Shown: positions 30,579 to 39,024, numbered from the stretch's first letter. The stretch is DNA of 64,000 nt from Candidatus Anaeroferrophillus wilburensis (GCA_016934315.1 JAFGSY010000011.1:493-64492); one strand, 5' to 3'. Notes: a model not told the origin generated them from the letters alone. Numbers and translations: made by a program.

Positions 30579-31853
30579 GTGGTTGTGGGACTAAATGCCA
30601 TAAAAGGTTTCAATGATATTTTGCCGACTGAGACCCAAGCCTGGCAGTGGATTGAGCAGGCTTTTCGCCAGCTGCTGGCATCATATGATTACGGCGAGAT
30701 TCGTCTGCCGATCCTGGAGTATACGGAACTGTTTTCCCGTAGTATCGGTGATGATACCGATATCGTTGAAAAAGAGATGTATACCTTTGCTGATCGTTCG
30801 AACCGGAGTTTGACTCTGCGGCCTGAAGGCACGGCTTCGGTGGTGCGGGCTTTTATTCAGCACGGGTTGGCAGCGACCAGGGAAATCAATAAGCTGTATT
30901 ACCTCGGCCCTATGTTTCGCTATGAAAGGCCCCAGAAAGGCAGGTATCGGCAATTCTATCAGTTGGGGGCGGAAGTGTTTGGCGAGGAGTCTTTTTGCCA
31001 GGATGCTGAGATGCTGATCATGTTGGCACGATATTTTCATGTTCTTGGTATTAGCTCGGCAAAATTGCACCTGAACTCTCTTGGTTGCGAACTGTGCCGT
31101 CCGGCCTATCGGCAAGCATTGCAGGGTTATCTCGAGCAGCGAATGACCGCTCTCTGTGCTGACTGTCACCGGCGGGTGCCCCAGAATCCCCTACGGGCTC
31201 TGGATTGCAAGCAGTCATCATGCCGGGCGGTGATGGCTGAAGCACCGAAAATTTCCGATTATCTTGGTGATGCCTGCCGGGAACATTTTGCTGGTCTTAC
31301 AGGCCTGTTGGATCAATCAGGGCTTGAGTATACGATTGATCCTTTCATGGTCAGGGGGTTGGACTATTACACTCGGACAACGTTTGAATTTCTTGCCGGT
31401 GACCTGGGAGCTCAGAATGCTGTTGCTGCCGGCGGCCGGTATGATCGTTTGGTGGAGGCGTTGGGGGGGTGTGCAACCCCTGCCATTGGTTTTGCCATAG
31501 GTCTGGAACGACTCAATATGCTGGTTGATAACGCTGACGTTCCCGAATCGGATCCATTTATAGCCTTGGTGGCTCTGGGAGAAACAGCGGCAACGTTCCT
31601 GTTTCCTTTGCTGCATCAGCTGAATCAGGAGGGGATCAGGGCGGTGATGAGTTTTAAGGAGAAAAGCCTCAAGAGTTTGTTGAAAAAAGCCGATAGGGAT
31701 AAGGTGAGCTACGCCCTCCTTGCCGGTGACCAGGAGCTCAAAGAGGGTGCCGCAATCTTGCGTAACATGATGACTAAAGAGCAGCAGTCGATACCCCTGT
31801 CGCTGCTGGTTGAATCTATCAGGGAGGTTTTCCATGGGCATCAAAATAACTGA
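30579..31853 (+). CDS. hisS: histidine--tRNA ligase
   Basis: Class II aaRS motifs (FRYERPQKGRYRQFYQ, GGRYD), about 420 aa. The start is GTG at 30579 or 30585. Confidence 0.93.
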   Translation: MVVGLNAIKGFNDILPTETQAWQWIEQAFRQLLASYDYGEIRLPILEYTELFSRSIGDDTDIVEKEMYTFADRSNRSLTLRPEGTASVVRAFIQHGLAATREINKLYYLGPMFRYERPQKGRYRQFYQLGAEVFGEESFCQDAEMLIMLARYFHVLGISSAKLHLNSLGCELCRPAYRQALQGYLEQRMTALCADCHRRVPQNPLRALDCKQSSCRAVMAEAPKISDYLGDACREHFAGLTGLLDQSGLEYTIDPFMVRGLDYYTRTTFEFLAGDLGAQNAVAAGGRYDRLVEALGGCATPAIGFAIGLERLNMLVDNADVPESDPFIALVALGETAATFLFPLLHQLNQEGIRAVMSFKEKSLKSLLKKADRDKVSYALLAGDQELKEGAAILRNMMTKEQQSIPLSLLVESIREVFHGHQNN

Positions 31854-32316
31854 TCCGTCAGCAGTCCCTGCTACCGGTGGTTCCGGAAAAAATCGTCCGG
31901 TATCGGAACAAAATGCTGCGGGTAATTTTCAGGATCTGCTTCGCAGCCGGATTGATGCTTCGCACCAGCAGAGCCAGGGGGTCCAGAAGGTTGCTGTTCC
32001 CCAAGCACCGTTTCCCGTCTATGAAATTGATGAATTGCCGGAGCTGCCCCAGGGGTTTGATTTGCGGGAAAAGGGTATTGCCGATACGGAGCGATTAATT
32101 GGGATTATGGATGCCTATCATGACAAGTTGGATAAGGGAACTGCCAACCTTTTTGACAAGCGAAGGCTGATAGAAGATATGGAGGCGGTGTCCCGCAACA
32201 TGCTTGGCTATATGGCTCACTTGACATCTGCGGACAAGTTGTATACGCTAATGAGAGATTCGGTCGTTATGGCTCGCGTTGAGATTGAAAAATATGTCCG
32301 TGGTGACTATGGGTAA
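31834..32316 (+). CDS. hypothetical protein (160 aa, ends ...RGDYG)
   Basis: ATG 31834 overlaps the hisS 3' end by 20 nt. The protein is helical and acidic in the middle. The next gene starts 1 nt after its stop, which suggests translational coupling. Confidence 0.5.
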   Translation: MGIKITDPSAVPATGGSGKNRPVSEQNAAGNFQDLLRSRIDASHQQSQGVQKVAVPQAPFPVYEIDELPELPQGFDLREKGIADTERLIGIMDAYHDKLDKGTANLFDKRRLIEDMEAVSRNMLGYMAHLTSADKLYTLMRDSVVMARVEIEKYVRGDYG

Positions 32317-33828
32317 ATGAGCCTTTTTTTTCCCAACCAGTATAATGATACTCCCTACCGGCAACTGTATGAGCGCCTGACGACGGTTGAACGTCTGAGG
32401 CTCCTGCGCGAGTTTGTCGGTGTCACCTATGAACGCCGATTCCGTTTTCTGCAATCAACCAACTCCAGCCAGCGTTTTAAAGAGAACCTTGTCCTTGCCG
32501 GCAAGAGTCTGCATGAAAAACAGACTATCAGCCGTTTGACCTGGCGTCATCGCGACCTGCTGCCGGGTTATCTGCCGCTCATCTTTCGTCACTACCTGTT
32601 CGGTTTTCTGGTGCAGTTGACCAGGGCCAGTCATCGTGCTCGTCTGCCGCAACCATCGCCATCCTGTTATTGGGAAACGCCGGTAAACCTGATCGTTCTC
32701 CGTTGGATTAACCGCCATTGGTCGCTCTGTCAGCAGGCCATAGCCCCCCATGTTGAACGGGTTATCGAAGAGAAGGTCAGGCATTTGTATATCTATTGCC
32801 TGCTTGCCTTTGAGGCCGCCCGCAGTATTTTTGATGAGGAGGAGCTGGCTGCCGAAATTGAGCTGTATCGGGCTTCTCAGATGCCAGGTGGAACCCCCAT
32901 CGGCCTTGAGATGGAATTCAGCAATCTCGGTCGTTATGCCACCTTTGACAAGCTTGGTCGTCATGGTGTCGATGCTGATCCATTCCACAATATGGAATAT
33001 TACAGCGCTTTCATGCTTGAGGATGTGACCTGGAGACTGGGAGGCTATGTCGATACCCATGTTCGCGGCCGTCGCCTATTTACCCTTTCCCGCTTTGGCG
33101 GGTTTTATGAATATTCGCTGGTGCGGGTGGATTATCCCCGACATTACAGTCTGCCTTTGACCACCGATCCGTGGGTGGCGAGCGCCATGATTGGTGAGAC
33201 CATCGATTTTGTCCGTGAGATCAAGCCCCACAGCCTGCATGTGAATCTTGAAAATCGGGGGTTGGGGGTTGTCCGCCCCCAGCTTGATGATTATTTGTGT
33301 CTGCTGATGCTGGGTGGGGACCTGGGGAAGGATGAAAACGGCAGAATGCTCGAAAAGCGTTTTGGTGGCAACGAATTGCGGGGGGTTATTCAGCGGCGGA
33401 AACACCTGTCTCTTTTGGCCGAGAAGAAAAAGGCGGTGGTGGAATATTCTTTTCTCCGCCTCTGGCGTGCCGGTGATCGGGAGTATGGTTATTTGCCGGT
33501 GATTATGGCTCTGAAAGGTTTTCAGCATGGCTATAATCTCGATTTGAGTTGCCGTGATCAGGTGCAGGGGATGCTGCACTGGGCGCAAAATCCCCGGCCA
33601 CTGGCGGAGAGTTCCCTGCATCGATTTGTGGAGACGGTCAAAAGCGGCCTGAGGAGTGAAGAGGCCTATGGCGAGAGGGAGATCGGTACATGGGGAGACC
33701 AGATTATGACCATCCTCAAGGACTGGAATCGGATACTCTCCTGTGTCATTATCCTAGAAATTTTCGATCCGTTTCCTGCTGTTATGCTGGCAGAGGTGGG
33801 GGTTTTTACAAAATTTTTCACAGGCTAA
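32317..33828 (+). CDS. hypothetical protein with glutamine-synthetase-fold amidoligase-like motifs
   Basis: GLEMEF matches the GxExEF metal-binding strand of GS. PHSLHVNLEN matches the HxH region. ENGRMLEKRFGGNELRGVIQRR matches the E/R-rich region of the GS/GCS2 fold. The N-terminal roughly 190 aa is of unknown function. Confidence 0.4.
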   Translation: MSLFFPNQYNDTPYRQLYERLTTVERLRLLREFVGVTYERRFRFLQSTNSSQRFKENLVLAGKSLHEKQTISRLTWRHRDLLPGYLPLIFRHYLFGFLVQLTRASHRARLPQPSPSCYWETPVNLIVLRWINRHWSLCQQAIAPHVERVIEEKVRHLYIYCLLAFEAARSIFDEEELAAEIELYRASQMPGGTPIGLEMEFSNLGRYATFDKLGRHGVDADPFHNMEYYSAFMLEDVTWRLGGYVDTHVRGRRLFTLSRFGGFYEYSLVRVDYPRHYSLPLTTDPWVASAMIGETIDFVREIKPHSLHVNLENRGLGVVRPQLDDYLCLLMLGGDLGKDENGRMLEKRFGGNELRGVIQRRKHLSLLAEKKKAVVEYSFLRLWRAGDREYGYLPVIMALKGFQHGYNLDLSCRDQVQGMLHWAQNPRPLAESSLHRFVETVKSGLRSEEAYGEREIGTWGDQIMTILKDWNRILSCVIILEIFDPFPAVMLAEVGVFTKFFTG

Positions 33829-34458
33829 TGATTGGGACCAGCGCTCGTGCAGATGTTCATCGATGCATAGCGCCGGTTCAATATGGACGTGCTGCGGTTC
33901 GGGTACTTTTTTCATCCGTCTGAACAGATTCCGTATGCGTTGCGCCTCCTTGATCTGGGGCTGTTCAGAGAGCAATTTCCAGCTGCCGCAGGAGATAAGG
34001 AACTCTTTCTGGTGCTCCGGGGTCAGATGTTCTATGGGGTAGGTATAGACCCAAGCTTCCTCCTCCTGGAATTCCCGCGGATTGGTATTCGTTTCAACTA
34101 CGATGGACAGCTTTTTCCTGATATAGATGCTTTTCTGGAAGTTGTCTGGGTAGTAGCTCTCCAACTGGTCCAAAGCCTTCATGGTTTTTTCCGGCCTTTT
34201 AAAAGTCATCAGTTCACCAAAAACGATATCTTGGCAGCCATCAAGGATAATGAGGCCGGGGAAGCCGATTGGCAGGTGGTAGAGCAGCCCTTGGCAGTAG
34301 GCCGGCTGGATGCTGGTTACCTGCCTGCGGATAAAGCGGTTGAAATTCTTGTAGCGTTCCATCAGACTGCCATAGACAAAAAAATAGGGCGTCGTGAGGA
34401 CGTCTGCTTTTCTTAATTCAGCCAAGGCTTTGAGTCGCAAGGCGAGTTTATCGCTCAT
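33754..34458 (-). CDS. gamma-glutamylcyclotransferase (GGCT/AIG2-like) family protein with Cys/His-rich C-terminal extension
   Basis: Start trimmed to ATG 34458 (MSDKLALRL...). It has the YFFVYGSLM signature and the catalytic-Glu motif VFGELMTF. Its C-terminal tail is CIDEHLHE...CEKFCKNPHLCQH. Its 3' end overlaps the convergent gene by 75 nt. Confidence 0.65.
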   Translation of the reverse strand: MSDKLALRLKALAELRKADVLTTPYFFVYGSLMERYKNFNRFIRRQVTSIQPAYCQGLLYHLPIGFPGLIILDGCQDIVFGELMTFKRPEKTMKALDQLESYYPDNFQKSIYIRKKLSIVVETNTNPREFQEEEAWVYTYPIEHLTPEHQKEFLISCGSWKLLSEQPQIKEAQRIRNLFRRMKKVPEPQHVHIEPALCIDEHLHERWSQSLACEKFCKNPHLCQHNSRKRIENF

Positions 34459-34854: not shown

Positions 34855-35148
34855 ATGTCTGAAAATAGTAAAAAGCCAGAGGTGAAGAAGGAAAGGGCTG
34901 CCGCAGCGCTTACCTACGAACGGAGCAAACAGAAAGCGCCGACGGTGGTTGCCAAAGGTTCCGGCTTGATGGCGGAAAAGATTATCGAGGTGGCCAGGGA
35001 ACATGGCATTCCCCTGAGAGAAGATCCGGCATTGGTGCAGGTGCTGATGACCCTCGATATCAACCAGGAAATTCCCCCCGAAGTGTATCATGTTGTTGCC
35101 GACATCCTGGCGATGATTTACCGGGCCCACCAGAAGTACGATTCCTGA
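34855..35148 (+). CDS. FlhB C-terminal-domain (EscU/YscU/HrcU-like) stand-alone protein
   Basis: ATG 34855 lies after GAGGA. AAALTYERSKQKAPTVVAKGSGLMAEKIIEVAREHGIPLREDPALVQVL...PPEVYHVVADILA matches the FlhB cytoplasmic autocleavage-domain pattern. Confidence 0.7.
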   Translation: MSENSKKPEVKKERAAAALTYERSKQKAPTVVAKGSGLMAEKIIEVAREHGIPLREDPALVQVLMTLDINQEIPPEVYHVVADILAMIYRAHQKYDS

Positions 35149-35414: not shown

Positions 35415-35816
35415 ATGAAAGAAAACATCTTTTCCCAGCCAAGCTGGCAGCCATGGGGAGAGGACTACACCGGCAGTTATGAGTTTACCCCCCATGTCGA
35501 TGTGATTGAAGGGCCATTGGCTTACAGACTGCTGCTGATGATTGCCGGGGTTGAGCCTGACCAGCTGACAGTTGAAGTCGATGATAATGTTCTTGTTCTT
35601 GCCGGGGAGCGTCGCCGGCCGGCGCTGGAACATGGAGAACTATTTGCCAGAGCTGAAAACCATTACGGTGTTTTTGAGCGGCGTTTTATCCTTCCGGATT
35701 CAGCTGATAAAAACGGGGTGCGGGCTCGCTATGAACATGGTGTGCTGGAGGTAGCCATTGCCAAAAAAGCTGCAGGGCCAGCACGATATATCCCGGTTGC
35801 CGGGGGAGATGGATAA
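35415..35816 (+). CDS. Hsp20/alpha-crystallin family small heat-shock protein
   Basis: Alpha-crystallin domain with the typical ...GVLEVAIAKK C-terminal motif. Confidence 0.88.
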   Translation: MKENIFSQPSWQPWGEDYTGSYEFTPHVDVIEGPLAYRLLLMIAGVEPDQLTVEVDDNVLVLAGERRRPALEHGELFARAENHYGVFERRFILPDSADKNGVRARYEHGVLEVAIAKKAAGPARYIPVAGGDG

Positions 35817-35877
35817 ACGTAGCATGTGATGACGAAAACATTTTTTAACAACGTAGTGAATGAGGAGGTAATGAATC

Positions 35878-36321
35878 ATGGCATTGGTAAAATGGACCCC
35901 ATTTCGTGATTTGATGACGATTCAGGATCAGATTAATCGTTTGTTTGAAGACAGTCTGCAGCGGACCGATGAAAAGAGGCTGATGGCTCCGTCCTGGCAG
36001 CCGCTGGTGGACATTTATGAGGATGGCCAGGCAATCATTATCAAGGCTGAACTGCCGGAGGTTGATGAAAAGGATATCCAGCTCAATATCGAGAATAATA
36101 CCCTGACCATTAAAGGTGAACGGAAGTTGGAGCAGGAGGAGAAAAAGGATAATTATCACCGGGTTGAGCGATTCTATGGTTCTTTTACCCGTTCCTTTGA
36201 CTTGCCGACAACGGTCGATCAGGATGGCATCAAGGCGAGCTATGATAAAGGGGTTTTGAAAATAACTCTGCCGAAAAAGGAGGAAGTGAAGCCCAAAAAA
36301 GTGCAGATTCAAGTGCAGTAA
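35878..36321 (+). CDS. Hsp20/alpha-crystallin family small heat-shock protein
   Basis: Alpha-crystallin domain (DIYEDGQAIIIKAELPEV...GVLKITLPK). Confidence 0.9.
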   Translation: MALVKWTPFRDLMTIQDQINRLFEDSLQRTDEKRLMAPSWQPLVDIYEDGQAIIIKAELPEVDEKDIQLNIENNTLTIKGERKLEQEEKKDNYHRVERFYGSFTRSFDLPTTVDQDGIKASYDKGVLKITLPKKEEVKPKKVQIQVQ

Positions 36322-36426: not shown

Positions 36427-39024
36427 ATGGATTTGAATAAATTGACCCAAAAAGCCCAGGAAGCAGTGCAGGATGCCCAGAATATCGCACTCCGGCGCAA
36501 CCATCAGCAGGTTGATGGTGAGCATCTGCTGCTGGCCCTGCTGCAGCAGGAACAGGGCCTTATTCCGAGAATCATTGAAAAAATTGGTTTGGTGCCGGAT
36601 ACCATCGGCCGGGAGATTGAAAAACGGCTGGCCGCTTTTCCCTCGGTCACCGGTACCGGCGCGTCCGCTGGCAGTATCTACATTACTACCCGGTTGAATA
36701 AACTGTTTCTGGGAGCTCAGGATGAAGCCAGTCGCCTGAAGGATGAGTATATCAGCGTTGAACATCTGCTTCTCAGCCTGCTCAATGACACCGCAGATCC
36801 CCTGGCGGCAATGTTTGTCGGCTATGGTGTCACCCGCGATAAAGTGCTCCAGGTGCTCAGCGAGGTGCGGGGGGCGCAGCGGGTGACCTCCCAGAATCCT
36901 GAAGAAACCTATCAGGCTCTGGAGAAATACGGTGTTGACCTTACCCGGTCAGCCAGCCAGGGAAAACTGGACCCGGTTATTGGCCGGGATGACGAAATTC
37001 GTCGGGTGATTCAGGTCCTCTCCCGGCGGACGAAGAATAATCCAGTGCTGATCGGTGAGCCGGGAGTGGGAAAAACAGCCATTGTTGAAGGCTTGGCCCA
37101 GAGGATCATCCGTCAGGATGTGCCGGAAAATCTGAAGCAGAAAAAGCTCGTTTCACTCGACATGGGAGCCCTGATTGCCGGTGCTAAATTCCGCGGTGAA
37201 TTTGAGGAACGGCTGAAAGCGGTACTCAAAGAAGTGCAGGAATCCCATGGTCAGGTTATTCTTTTCATCGATGAGATGCATACGGTGGTCGGCGCCGGCA
37301 GGGCCGAAGGGTCGATGGATGCCGGCAATTTGCTGAAGCCCATGCTGGCCCGGGGCGAGCTTCATTGTATCGGTGCCACAACCCTGAATGAGTATCGCCG
37401 GCACGTGGAGAAGGATGCCGCTCTGGAGCGGCGCTTCCAGCCGGTATTGGTAAAGCAGCCGACGGTTCCCGACACCATCTCTATCCTGAGGGGGTTGAAG
37501 GAACGCTATGAGGTCCACCACGGAGTAAGAATTAAGGATGCCGCTCTGGTGTCGGCGGCGGTTCTTTCCCACCGCTATATCAACGACCGGTTTCTGCCCG
37601 ACAAGGCCATCGATCTCATTGATGAGGCGGCTGCCCGGCTGCGGACTGAAATTGACAGCATGCCTGCTGATCTGGACGAGGTGACCAGAAAAACTATGCA
37701 GCTGGAAATTGAGCGCGAAGCCTTAAAAAAAGAGAAGGATGACGCCTCCCGCAAGCGTCTGGGGATACTTGAAAAGGAACTGGCTGATCTGCAGGAGAGC
37801 AGCGCCGCTCTGCTGGCCCAGTGGCAGGTTGAAAAAGAGCAGATCAGCCGTCTCCAGGAGCTGAATAAGCAGTTGGAAGAAACCAAACGGGAGATTGAAA
37901 AGGCGGAGCGCAACTACGATCTCAACCGGGCGGCGGAATTGAAGTATGGTGTCCTGACCAAGCTTGAGCAGGAAAAGGCTGCAGCGGCACAGTCGGTTGC
38001 CGGCCCGAAAGGCGGCAGCCGTTTGCTCAAGGAGGAGGTTGATGAAGAAGATGTGGCTGCCATTGTCAGCCGCTGGACCGGTATTCCGGTGAACAAACTG
38101 ATGGAGGGGGAGCGGGAAAAGCTTGTCCACCTGGAGGAGATGCTCCATCGCCGGGTTGTGGGCCAGGATGAAGCAGTGCAGACGGTTGCCGATGCGGTTC
38201 TCCGGGCTCGGGCCGGGATCAAGGATCCCAATCGACCAATCGGCAGCTTTATTTTCCTTGGTCCAACCGGGGTCGGCAAAACGGAGCTGGCCCGGTCACT
38301 GGCTGAATTTCTTTTTGATGATGAAGAGAATATGACCCGTATTGATATGTCGGAGTATATGGAAAAACACGCGGTTGCCCGCCTGATCGGGGCGCCGCCA
38401 GGATATGTCGGTTTTGAAGAGGGTGGCCAGCTTACCGAGGCCGTCCGTCGCCGGCCTTACTCGGTGCTGCTGTTTGACGAAATAGAAAAGGCCCATCCCG
38501 ATGTCTTCAATATTATGCTGCAGATTCTTGATGACGGCCGGCTGACCGATGCCCACGGTCGGACGGTGGATTTTAAAAATACCGTCATTATCATGACCTC
38601 TAACATCGGCAGCCAGCATATTCTGGAATACCAGGGAGATGAACAGCAGTATGGCAGGATGAAGGACCGGGTGCTGGCCGACATGCGCGCCCAGTTCAAG
38701 CCGGAGTTTCTCAATCGGGTGGATGATATTGTTGTTTTTCACTCACTGAATAAGGTTCAGCTGCAGTCTATTGTTGATATTCAGCTGCGGCGATTGTTTG
38801 AGCGCTTGGCTGAGCGGGAGATCGTCCTGGAGCTTACTCCCGAGGCCAGGGGATTCCTGGCTGAAAAAGGTTATGATCCCGCCTATGGCGCCCGGCCGCT
38901 GAAACGCTCTATCCAGCATTATTTGGAAACGCCGCTGGCCCGTGAAATCATGCAGGGGAAGGTGAAAAACGGCAGCCGGGTGAGGGTGCGGCCGGAAGGT
39001 GATCACCTGATTTTCATGAATTAA
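36427..39024 (+). CDS. clpB: ATP-dependent chaperone ClpB
   Basis: Two AAA+ modules ([16 protein letters not shown]) and a long coiled-coil M-domain, 865 aa. Confidence 0.95.

Follow-up and report, generated by a model that had tools for sequence, protein, structure and literature searches.

The window analysed here, a 64,000-nucleotide (nt) stretch of a contig from Candidatus Anaeroferrophillus wilburensis (GCA_016934315.1, JAFGSY010000011.1:493-64492), contains three consecutive genes, denoted A, B and C, located immediately after the histidyl-tRNA synthetase gene hisS (30579..31853, + strand; Pfam tRNA-synt_His, 1.1e-54). Gene A (31834..32316, + strand) encodes a protein of 160 amino acids (aa) ending in RGDYG, gene B (32317..33828, + strand) a protein of 503 aa, and gene C (33754..34458, - strand) a protein of 234 aa, with Met58 of a 291-aa open reading frame (ORF) taken as its start. 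An earlier examination of the same DNA (hereafter the sequence-only reading) had proposed that the three genes form a ligation module, in which A would be a small Gly-terminated acceptor, B an amidoligase of the glutamine synthetase (GS) fold and C a cyclotransferase. The coordinates and strands of the three ORFs were reproduced, and all four motifs on which that proposal was built are present, namely GLEMEF (B residues 196-201; 32902..32919, + strand), SLHVNLE (B residues 306-312), YGSLM (C residues 29-33) and VFGEL (C residues 79-83). The existence of homologues (at least 88 for B, 24 for A at 35-64% identity, and 36 distinct ones for C) argues that A, B and C are real genes rather than chance ORFs. 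The main positive result of the analysis is that B and the GGACT-type cyclotransferase represented by C are genuine functional partners.

The three genes are tightly packed. The 3' end of hisS, which in this clade is regularly encoded upstream of the module but is probably context rather than a component of it, shares 20 nt with the start of A; the sequence GGGAGG is found 5' of the A start codon, and comEC is located upstream of hisS-A-B. The TAA stop codon of A directly abuts the ATG of B (ggg TAA ATG), and B and C converge with a tail-to-tail overlap of 75 nt (33754..33828). Thus, the coupling of A to B and the overlapping convergence of B and C described in the sequence-only reading both hold true for the window, where they are specific features of this locus and not general ones. 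Unlike in the window, two relatives with called genes have a gap of 24-34 nt between A and B.

Protein C is clearly assignable, by profile comparison, to the GGACT/AIG2-like gamma-glutamyl(amine) cyclotransferase family. It matches PF06094 (GGACT) with 64.4 bits (cut-off 22.8; E = 1.9e-17) over model positions 1-119 of 120, with the domain spanning residues 26-161 (33976-34383, - strand), and the phrog_2520 GGCT profile at 2.5e-12. The loci fetched from other genomes contained the 36 distinct homologues, and residues Y29, G30, S31, L32, G81 and E82 are 100% conserved in the resulting 37 distinct sequences. Because the YGSL motif and the Gly-Glu pair at the catalytic position are invariant, C is predicted to be catalytically competent, and its earlier recognition as a GGCT-fold protein with catalytic motifs is upheld. 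The same is true of its Cys/His-bearing tail: the C-terminal extension is conserved, with invariant C157, C213, C217 and C223, the last three forming a Cx3Cx5C motif, an invariant H144 and an H149 conserved at 97%. These residues suggest that the cyclotransferase has acquired a Zn or Fe-S site. Residues 157-223 correspond to window positions 33790-33990 (- strand), and the Cys set is found in the split GGACT partners. The Cx3Cx5C motif (C213 to C223, codons 33790-33822) is encoded within the 75-nt overlap with B. On the B side, the last ~20 residues are unconserved and residues 490-503 are modelled with a predicted local distance difference test (pLDDT) score below 50; the overlap is therefore constrained by C and not by B.

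In a scan of GTDB species genomes, with one genome scanned per species, 243 genomes encode a relative of B, and the best 80 loci were retained. The partnership between B and GGACT emerged when all fetched loci were searched with hidden Markov models (HMMs) of the three proteins, of hisS and comEC, and of the FlhB-like protein encoded next to C. In 37 of the 37 non-redundant split loci holding both genes, GGACT is encoded on the opposite strand, tail to tail with B. Seventeen of these loci have a 3'-end overlap of 9-80 nt and another 16 have 3' ends 0-100 nt apart, the full range of spacing across split loci being -80 to +2773 nt. Four architectures can be distinguished. The window and four close relatives display the order comEC-hisS-A-B-GGACT(convergent)-FlhB-like, whereas comEC-hisS-A-B without GGACT is found in 10 loci, with 3 more carrying hisS-B without A. 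The third architecture, B with a convergent GGACT gene but without A or hisS, is represented by 29 loci with full-length B (32 including partial ones). Finally, in 21 loci the two proteins are joined in a single GGACT-B polypeptide, with GGACT at the N terminus; these fusions are encoded by Planctomycetes, Phycisphaerae, Lentisphaerae/Victivallales, Kiritimatiellota, Poribacteria and KSB1. PF06094 is present in 11 of the 38 members of a 38-sequence B alignment, plus further fragments, and in 30 of the 48 members of a diverse 48-sequence alignment, and no domain other than GGACT was fused to B among the family members scanned.

The surroundings of the pair are far less constant. At least four flanking contexts were observed (hisS/FlhB-like, Dus/GT4, ANKH/DUF4136 and acs/DUF294 nucleotidyltransferase), and the B-GGACT pair has therefore moved as a unit. 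It is this constant adjacency despite changing flanks, together with the fusions in several phyla, that establishes the partnership, making the link between B and C stronger than the sequence-only reading could know. Conservation of the trio across genomes, which that reading had put forward as a check, is seen for the B-C pairing but not for A, B and C together, which co-occur in five loci only. In the Desulfuromonadaceae loci (L046-L070), the pair is embedded in a conserved block, in which genes for an RNase T-like exonuclease and acetyl-CoA synthetase (acs) lie 5' of it and a gene for a cNMP-binding/CBS/DUF294 (GlnE-like) nucleotidyltransferase, followed by aspS, lies 3' of it. Since many bacteria have hisS next to aspS, the tRNA-synthetase neighbourhood of B-GGACT may be ancestral synteny.

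In a neighbour-joining tree rooted on the fusions, the split B genes form one clade, which contains a Desulfuromonadaceae B-GGACT group, a hisS-A-B group, and the window type together with the remaining B-GGACT group. Many metagenome-assembled genomes (MAGs) of Thermodesulfobacteriota hold two B paralogues on separate contigs, one in a hisS-A-B arrangement without GGACT and the other paired with GGACT without A (L030 and L034, L031 and L067, L022 and L029, L018 and L025, L023 and L035, L024 and L039, L020 and L033, among others). The window-type genomes apparently hold one B gene with both partners. Two consecutive ORFs make up B in one MAG each of Ca. Tharpella aukensis (L067, 2026-3455) and Gimesia maris (L083, 8039-9991), which reflects a frameshift, a pseudogene or an error of assembly.

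The neighbours of the fused genes were clustered and then checked with Pfam. In 10 loci of Planctomycetes/Phycisphaerae, an alanine racemase gene is located directly upstream of the GGACT-B fusion and is itself preceded by genes for a GT2 glycosyltransferase and a large membrane protein, while a malate/lactate dehydrogenase gene converges from downstream and an aminotransferase gene is found nearby. In the Lentisphaerae/Victivallales, a glutamate racemase gene lies downstream of the fusion in 6 of 6 loci, with genes for a GNAT acetyltransferase and an AccA-like protein (the latter identified from its sequence alone) upstream. In one locus from KSB1 and another, similar one from a JGI metagenome, the fusion is sandwiched between an HMGL-like synthase and Iso_dh, with aconitase in one of the two. 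The enzymes encoded around the fused genes thus touch glutamate, alanine and their D-forms, which hints at glutamate or D-amino-acid metabolism.

The 88 homologues of B share 41-70% identity with it, come from Thermodesulfobacteriota-type MAGs and are all annotated as hypothetical; a more distant group, at 28-35% identity, consists of proteins of 630-670 aa carrying PF06094. A HMMER profile search with B against 1.84 billion cluster representatives (E <= 0.001) yielded 138 proteins and no hit bridging to a known family, so that the B family appears, within the sequence space searched, to be small and sharply bounded. B and 37 of its homologues had no match in Pfam, NCBIfam or PHROGs even at E <= 10, and none of the PDB chains was matched in a profile search with B. 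The literature search found no publication on the family. The sequence-only reading was right that B has no named domain and that the trio appears uncharacterised. A phage origin was rejected, as no relatives of B were found in viral contigs, and identity as a defence system was discarded in view of the lack of a PADLOC match.

An AlphaFold2 model of full-length B, built from the 38-sequence alignment, has a pLDDT of 87.4 and a predicted template modelling score (pTM) of 0.89. In this model, residues 1-187 form a helical N-terminal domain, residues 195-405 an alpha/beta core and residues 412-483 C-terminal helices; the conserved length of the family is ~480 residues. Four residues, E200, S202, R348 and R381, are invariant in the 48-sequence alignment, and E198, D246, E265, H305, S306, H308, D335 and E353 are conserved in at least 90% of the sequences. 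The conserved residues are located on or beside the predicted core strands. The HSLHVN segment (residues 305-310; 33229..33246, + strand), in which H305, S306 and H308 are, like the preceding P304, nearly invariant, falls within a strand predicted at residues 304-312. This pattern of conserved acidic residues, histidines and arginines gives B the appearance of an enzyme.

To compare B with the amidoligases, gene 40 of Bacillus phage 031MP004 (PF12224, 6e-38) and a 25-sequence alignment built from it served as the Amidoligase_2 reference. By inspection, the reference motifs GIEIEF, WKLVYDAS, LELVSP, CGVHVH and IEFRQH have counterparts in B in GLEMEF, WRLGGYVD, YEYS...P, HSLHVN and IQRRKH, with like order and spacing, and a permissive alignment of B with Amidoligase_2 places, after GxExEF, the WKL, S-P, H..H and IQxRxH/IEFRQH elements in the same order. 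The hallmarks invoked in the sequence-only reading fared unevenly. The GxExEF strand is present and its ExE element (E198, E200) is conserved, as is E265, but the presumed HxH strand reads H305-x-x-H308. The candidate ExR strand is either Q359-x-R361-x-H363 or E376...R381. GxExEF is the sole segment of B that repeatedly aligns to Amidoligase_2 and YbdK, in which it forms the metal-binding strand; an hhalign comparison of B with the single Escherichia coli YbdK sequence aligned 9 columns, covering the GxExE strand only.

Protein A is located between hisS and B wherever the context is visible. In the alignment of its homologues, the N-terminal third is variable and the C-terminal two-thirds are conserved, ending ARVEIEKYVRGDY[G/S]. 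The C-terminal 14 residues are the most conserved part of the protein; the conserved end reads ARVE[IV]EK[YF]xRGDY, followed by G, S, SS or SK, with RGDY being invariant and the terminus being G in 15 of the 22 aligned sequences and S, SS or SK in the other 7. All five loci with A, B and GGACT encode an A ending in Gly, and those of the hisS-A-B type an A ending in Ser or Ser-Ser. Overall, A is present in 15 of 77 non-redundant loci with full-length B; it is lacking in all 29 B-GGACT-only loci, all 21 fusions and three hisS-B loci, and GGACT is not adjacent at most A-bearing loci. Because A is limited to the hisS-B interval and lacking from most of the B family, its distribution argues that it is a clade-specific accessory which accompanies hisS-linked B genes, where it may act as a regulator or adaptor, and not a general acceptor. 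The role of Gly-terminated acceptor assigned to it in the sequence-only reading is hence not supported, given the varying last residue (G in one subclade; S, SS or SK in others) and the lack of A at most B-GGACT loci.

A has no match in Pfam, NCBIfam or PDB and noise-level matches only in PHROGs and PADLOC, and no sequence similarity to the carrier or tag families (beta-grasp, Pup, LysW) was detected. The possibility that A is DUF327/YaaR was discarded, as no Pfam match was obtained at E <= 1, and a relationship to the small protein encoded downstream of the KSB1 fusion was rejected after comparison revealed no similarity. By inspection, the C terminus of A (residues 149-160, window 32278-32313), VEIEKYVRGDYG, resembles a strand-loop segment of B (residues 374-393, 33436-33495), VVEYSFLRLWRAGDREYGY, and one B homologue (L068) reads FLRLRGDYS; the resemblance between the A tail and the B segment could be chance or mimicry.

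We propose, with a probability of roughly 35%, that B and C are obligate partners in a small-molecule or peptide pathway which first makes and then breaks a gamma-glutamyl-type amide. In such a pathway, B would be a metal-dependent and probably ATP-dependent carboxylate-amine ligase-like enzyme with an unclassified catalytic domain, joining glutamate through its gamma-carboxyl to an amine. Following an intervening step, C would cyclise the gamma-glutamyl group, yielding 5-oxoproline and the free amine. The proposal draws on the B-C partnership, on the enzyme-like conservation of B, on the local hhalign match of B to YbdK and Amidoligase_2 at the GxExE(F) strand with the following motifs in matching order (nominal P of 0.005-0.014 for Amidoligase_2), on the phage precedent described below and on the glutamate-related neighbours of the fused genes. 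A ligase mechanism for B is plausible, though unproven; the ligase activity of B, its use of ATP and the role of glutamate as acyl donor are all inferences. The racemase neighbours found in the Planctomycetes-Verrucomicrobia-Chlamydiae (PVC) group point to chemistry involving Glu, D-Glu or D-Ala.

Several results weigh against this proposal. B has no sound statistical similarity to any ligase, the HMM searches of B against ligase families being all negative. When B was compared with Amidoligase_2 by hhalign, the P value was 0.014 over the full length and 0.0054 over the core (probabilities of 3-7%), which is no better than shuffled controls: in 120 trials with block-shuffled Amidoligase_2 alignments, 9 scored as high as the real one (mean of 20 versus a real score of 25-26). 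Likewise, a collinear alignment of the two profiles had a z of 0.8-1.3, and HMM-to-sequence scores were <= 4 bits. Following the block-shuffle, reversed and collinear-alignment controls, the nominally suggestive hhalign result was not accepted as proof; a sequence-profile search of the PDB with Amidoligase_2 returned nothing. Structural comparison, which the sequence-only reading had suggested as a check, points the same way, as Foldseek found no GS-fold match for either of two confident B models. The full-length model had no significant match in the PDB (best E = 0.45), with yeast glutamine synthetase at E = 0.72, a template modelling (TM) score of 0.15-0.21 and a root-mean-square deviation of 10.6, and the amidoligase models in BFVD at E = 4-5 only; such noise-level matches were not counted as evidence. 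For a second model, of residues 188-485 (pLDDT 82.7, pTM 0.86), the best PDB match reached E = 0.03 (TM <= 0.23) and the top 50 contained no GS-fold entry. The assignment of B as a GS-fold amidoligase is thus neither demonstrated nor refuted by sequence and model comparison. Further difficulties concern the pathway itself. A ligase fused to the enzyme which undoes its product would run a futile cycle unless another step intervenes, and no conserved third enzyme was found. In addition, split B and GGACT genes are convergent and therefore not co-transcribed, and the hisS-linked clade of B paralogues has no adjacent GGACT.

A salvage route, in which B, instead of being a ligase, would work on the other side of the cyclotransferase reaction and the fusion would join consecutive steps, is a possible but less favoured explanation. 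In one version, B would be a peptidase or amidase exposing a free alpha-amine on gamma-glutamyl groups, such as those in gamma-D-Glu-diamino-acid fragments derived from peptidoglycan stem peptides; in another, it would be a new 5-oxoprolinase-type enzyme reopening the L- or D-5-oxoproline made by GGACT. Fusions usually join consecutive rather than opposing steps, and the PVC neighbours (alanine or glutamate racemase, aminotransferase, malate dehydrogenase) fit amino-acid salvage to Glu and Ala; on both counts a salvage route fits better than the making and breaking of an amide, although the racemase neighbours are limited to two phyla and may be inherited synteny. The 2-oxoglutarate-branch enzymes encoded at KSB1 and similar loci fit such salvage as well. 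The conserved His, Asp and Glu residues of B are equally compatible with a metallohydrolase, and no ligase fold was detected for B, but neither was any similarity to the peptidase, amidohydrolase, PxpABC or OplAH families, and the combination of invariant R348 and R381 with an ExE strand is encountered more typically in phosphoryl-transfer enzymes. A more doubtful idea is that B is the founder of a new catalytic fold, obligatorily coupled to GGACT in an unrecognised gamma-glutamyl/5-oxoproline pathway. The pair could then form or reopen 5-oxoproline by an alternative route or process gamma-D-glutamyl peptides, and could be tied to D-Ala/D-Glu metabolism (peptidoglycan precursors or recycling) in the PVC group and Thermodesulfobacteriota.

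That B is not an enzyme at all but serves the cyclotransferase as a regulator, scaffold or substrate-delivery protein, with its conserved residues binding a ligand or metal, we consider improbable. No catalytic family can be assigned to B, and its large N-terminal domain, which is helical, and the long helices at its C terminus would suit such a role; on the other hand, invariant charged residues are dense on the core strands across 24-70% identity, the 480 aa of B compare with ~130 aa of the catalytic GGACT domain, and the hisS-linked B paralogues persist without an adjacent GGACT. Most improbable, in our view, is the original proposal that A is a Pup-, LysW- or ubiquitin-like carrier or tag, the C-terminal Gly of which is ligated by a GS-fold B, with C removing or trimming the modification. 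The adjacency of A to B in ~15 non-redundant loci from two B subclades, the abutment of the A stop codon and the B start codon in the window, the strong conservation of the last 14 residues of A and the Gly-ended A at all five A-B-GGACT loci speak for it. They are offset by the variation of the terminal residue (G, S, SS, SK), by the lack of A from the 29 B-GGACT loci, all fusions and three hisS-B loci, by the usual non-adjacency of GGACT where A is present, and by the lack of both a demonstrated GS fold in B and a detectable likeness of A to carrier or tag proteins.

The pairing of a cyclotransferase with a putative ligase is already known as a computational prediction: Iyer, Abhiman, Burroughs and Aravind reportedly predicted, in 2009 (Mol Biosyst 5:1636), gene neighbourhoods combining Amidoligase_2 (PF12224) with AIG2/GGCT. 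In the Bacillus subtilis phage 031MP004 (L095, 3009-5417), the Amidoligase_2 gene 40 is located four genes upstream of the GGCT gene 44. Bacillus phage G carries two tandem GGCT genes (L094, 5992-6844). Clusters in phages that combine genes for amidoligase, GGCT, GATase and ATP-grasp proteins have been reported (PMC10945688). The B-GGACT pair is similar to the Amidoligase_2/GGCT systems in combining a protein bearing a GxExEF strand with a GGCT-fold cyclotransferase, and, by inspection, B shares with Amidoligase_2 the matching order and similar spacing of its motifs (GxExEF, WxLGG..D, E..S.P, HSLH and IQxRxH). Unlike Amidoligase_2, B has no Pfam match, is ~200 aa longer, with a helical N-terminal domain, and has a profile-profile similarity not above shuffled controls. 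Furthermore, B-GGACT is not accompanied by a GATase or ATP-grasp partner and, unlike the phage systems, B is found in cells only and is often fused to GGACT.

In butirosin biosynthesis, the ATP-grasp enzyme BtrJ adds a protective gamma-glutamyl group, which the GGCT-fold BtrG removes as 5-oxoproline. As we propose for B and C, the ligase and the cyclotransferase bracket a pathway, and opposing activities can be kept together because enzymes of the BtrJ/BtrG type act at its two ends. However, B is not detectably an ATP-grasp protein, and neither a biosynthetic cluster nor a carrier protein is encoded around B-C. The gamma-glutamyl cycle combines glutamate-cysteine ligase (GCL) with GGCT, its release step yielding 5-oxoproline, whereas the GS-like gamma-glutamyl-amine synthetases PuuA, GMAS and IpuC usually have GATase-type hydrolases as deglutamylase partners. 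In all these cases, as would also be the case for B and C, Glu is coupled to an amine via its gamma-carboxyl and later released. B differs in that GCL, PuuA, GMAS and IpuC are recognisable GS or GCL members, and the partner of B is GGACT and not a GATase-type hydrolase. Finally, PafA/Dop with Pup and LysX with LysW ligate the C terminus of a small protein. Similar to these systems, the small, partly disordered-looking A is encoded beside a putative carboxylate-amine ligase; by contrast, the C-terminal residue of A is not conserved, A is lacking from most of the B family, and no proteasome or lysine/arginine-pathway genes are found near B.

Downstream of the module, on the + strand, the window encodes a 97-aa protein of the FlhB/YscU C-terminal-domain type (34855-35148; TIGR00789 flhB_rel, 2e-29; PF01312, 2e-21), two tandem HSP20-type small heat-shock proteins (35415-36321) and ClpB (36427-39024). 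The FlhB-like protein comprises the C-terminal (autocleavage) domain of FlhB only, and its gene is divergent from the GGACT gene. This neighbour recurs in L008, L015 and L016, with none at other B-GGACT loci, and the HSP20/clpB block is also found downstream of the module in L008. Rfam searches of 8 loci detected no riboswitch or other RNA element at the gathering threshold, the window giving sub-threshold noise only, and the signals in promoter and terminator scans were not above the shuffled expectation.

What is new here, as far as comparison with existing models can tell, is a GGACT-coupled protein family, B, which has no model in Pfam, NCBIfam, PHROGs or the PDB. The MAGs that encode relatives include some assigned to Gimesia maris (L083) and to Victivallis vadensis (L078), and relatives also occur in Desulfuromonas-group bacteria; G. 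maris and V. vadensis have cultured strains, so experiments would be feasible if those strains carry the B gene. GGCT-fold enzymes are widespread in bacteria, and substrates are known for few of them. A gene tied to GGACT by adjacency or fusion in at least five phyla therefore offers a concrete two-component system for finding a new gamma-glutamyl/5-oxoproline reaction. If B is a ligase, the amidoligase-cyclotransferase theme would gain a new catalytic domain; if it is not, B may represent a new enzyme fold. The racemase neighbours suggest a testable link of the B-GGACT pair to D-amino acids or cell-wall peptides.

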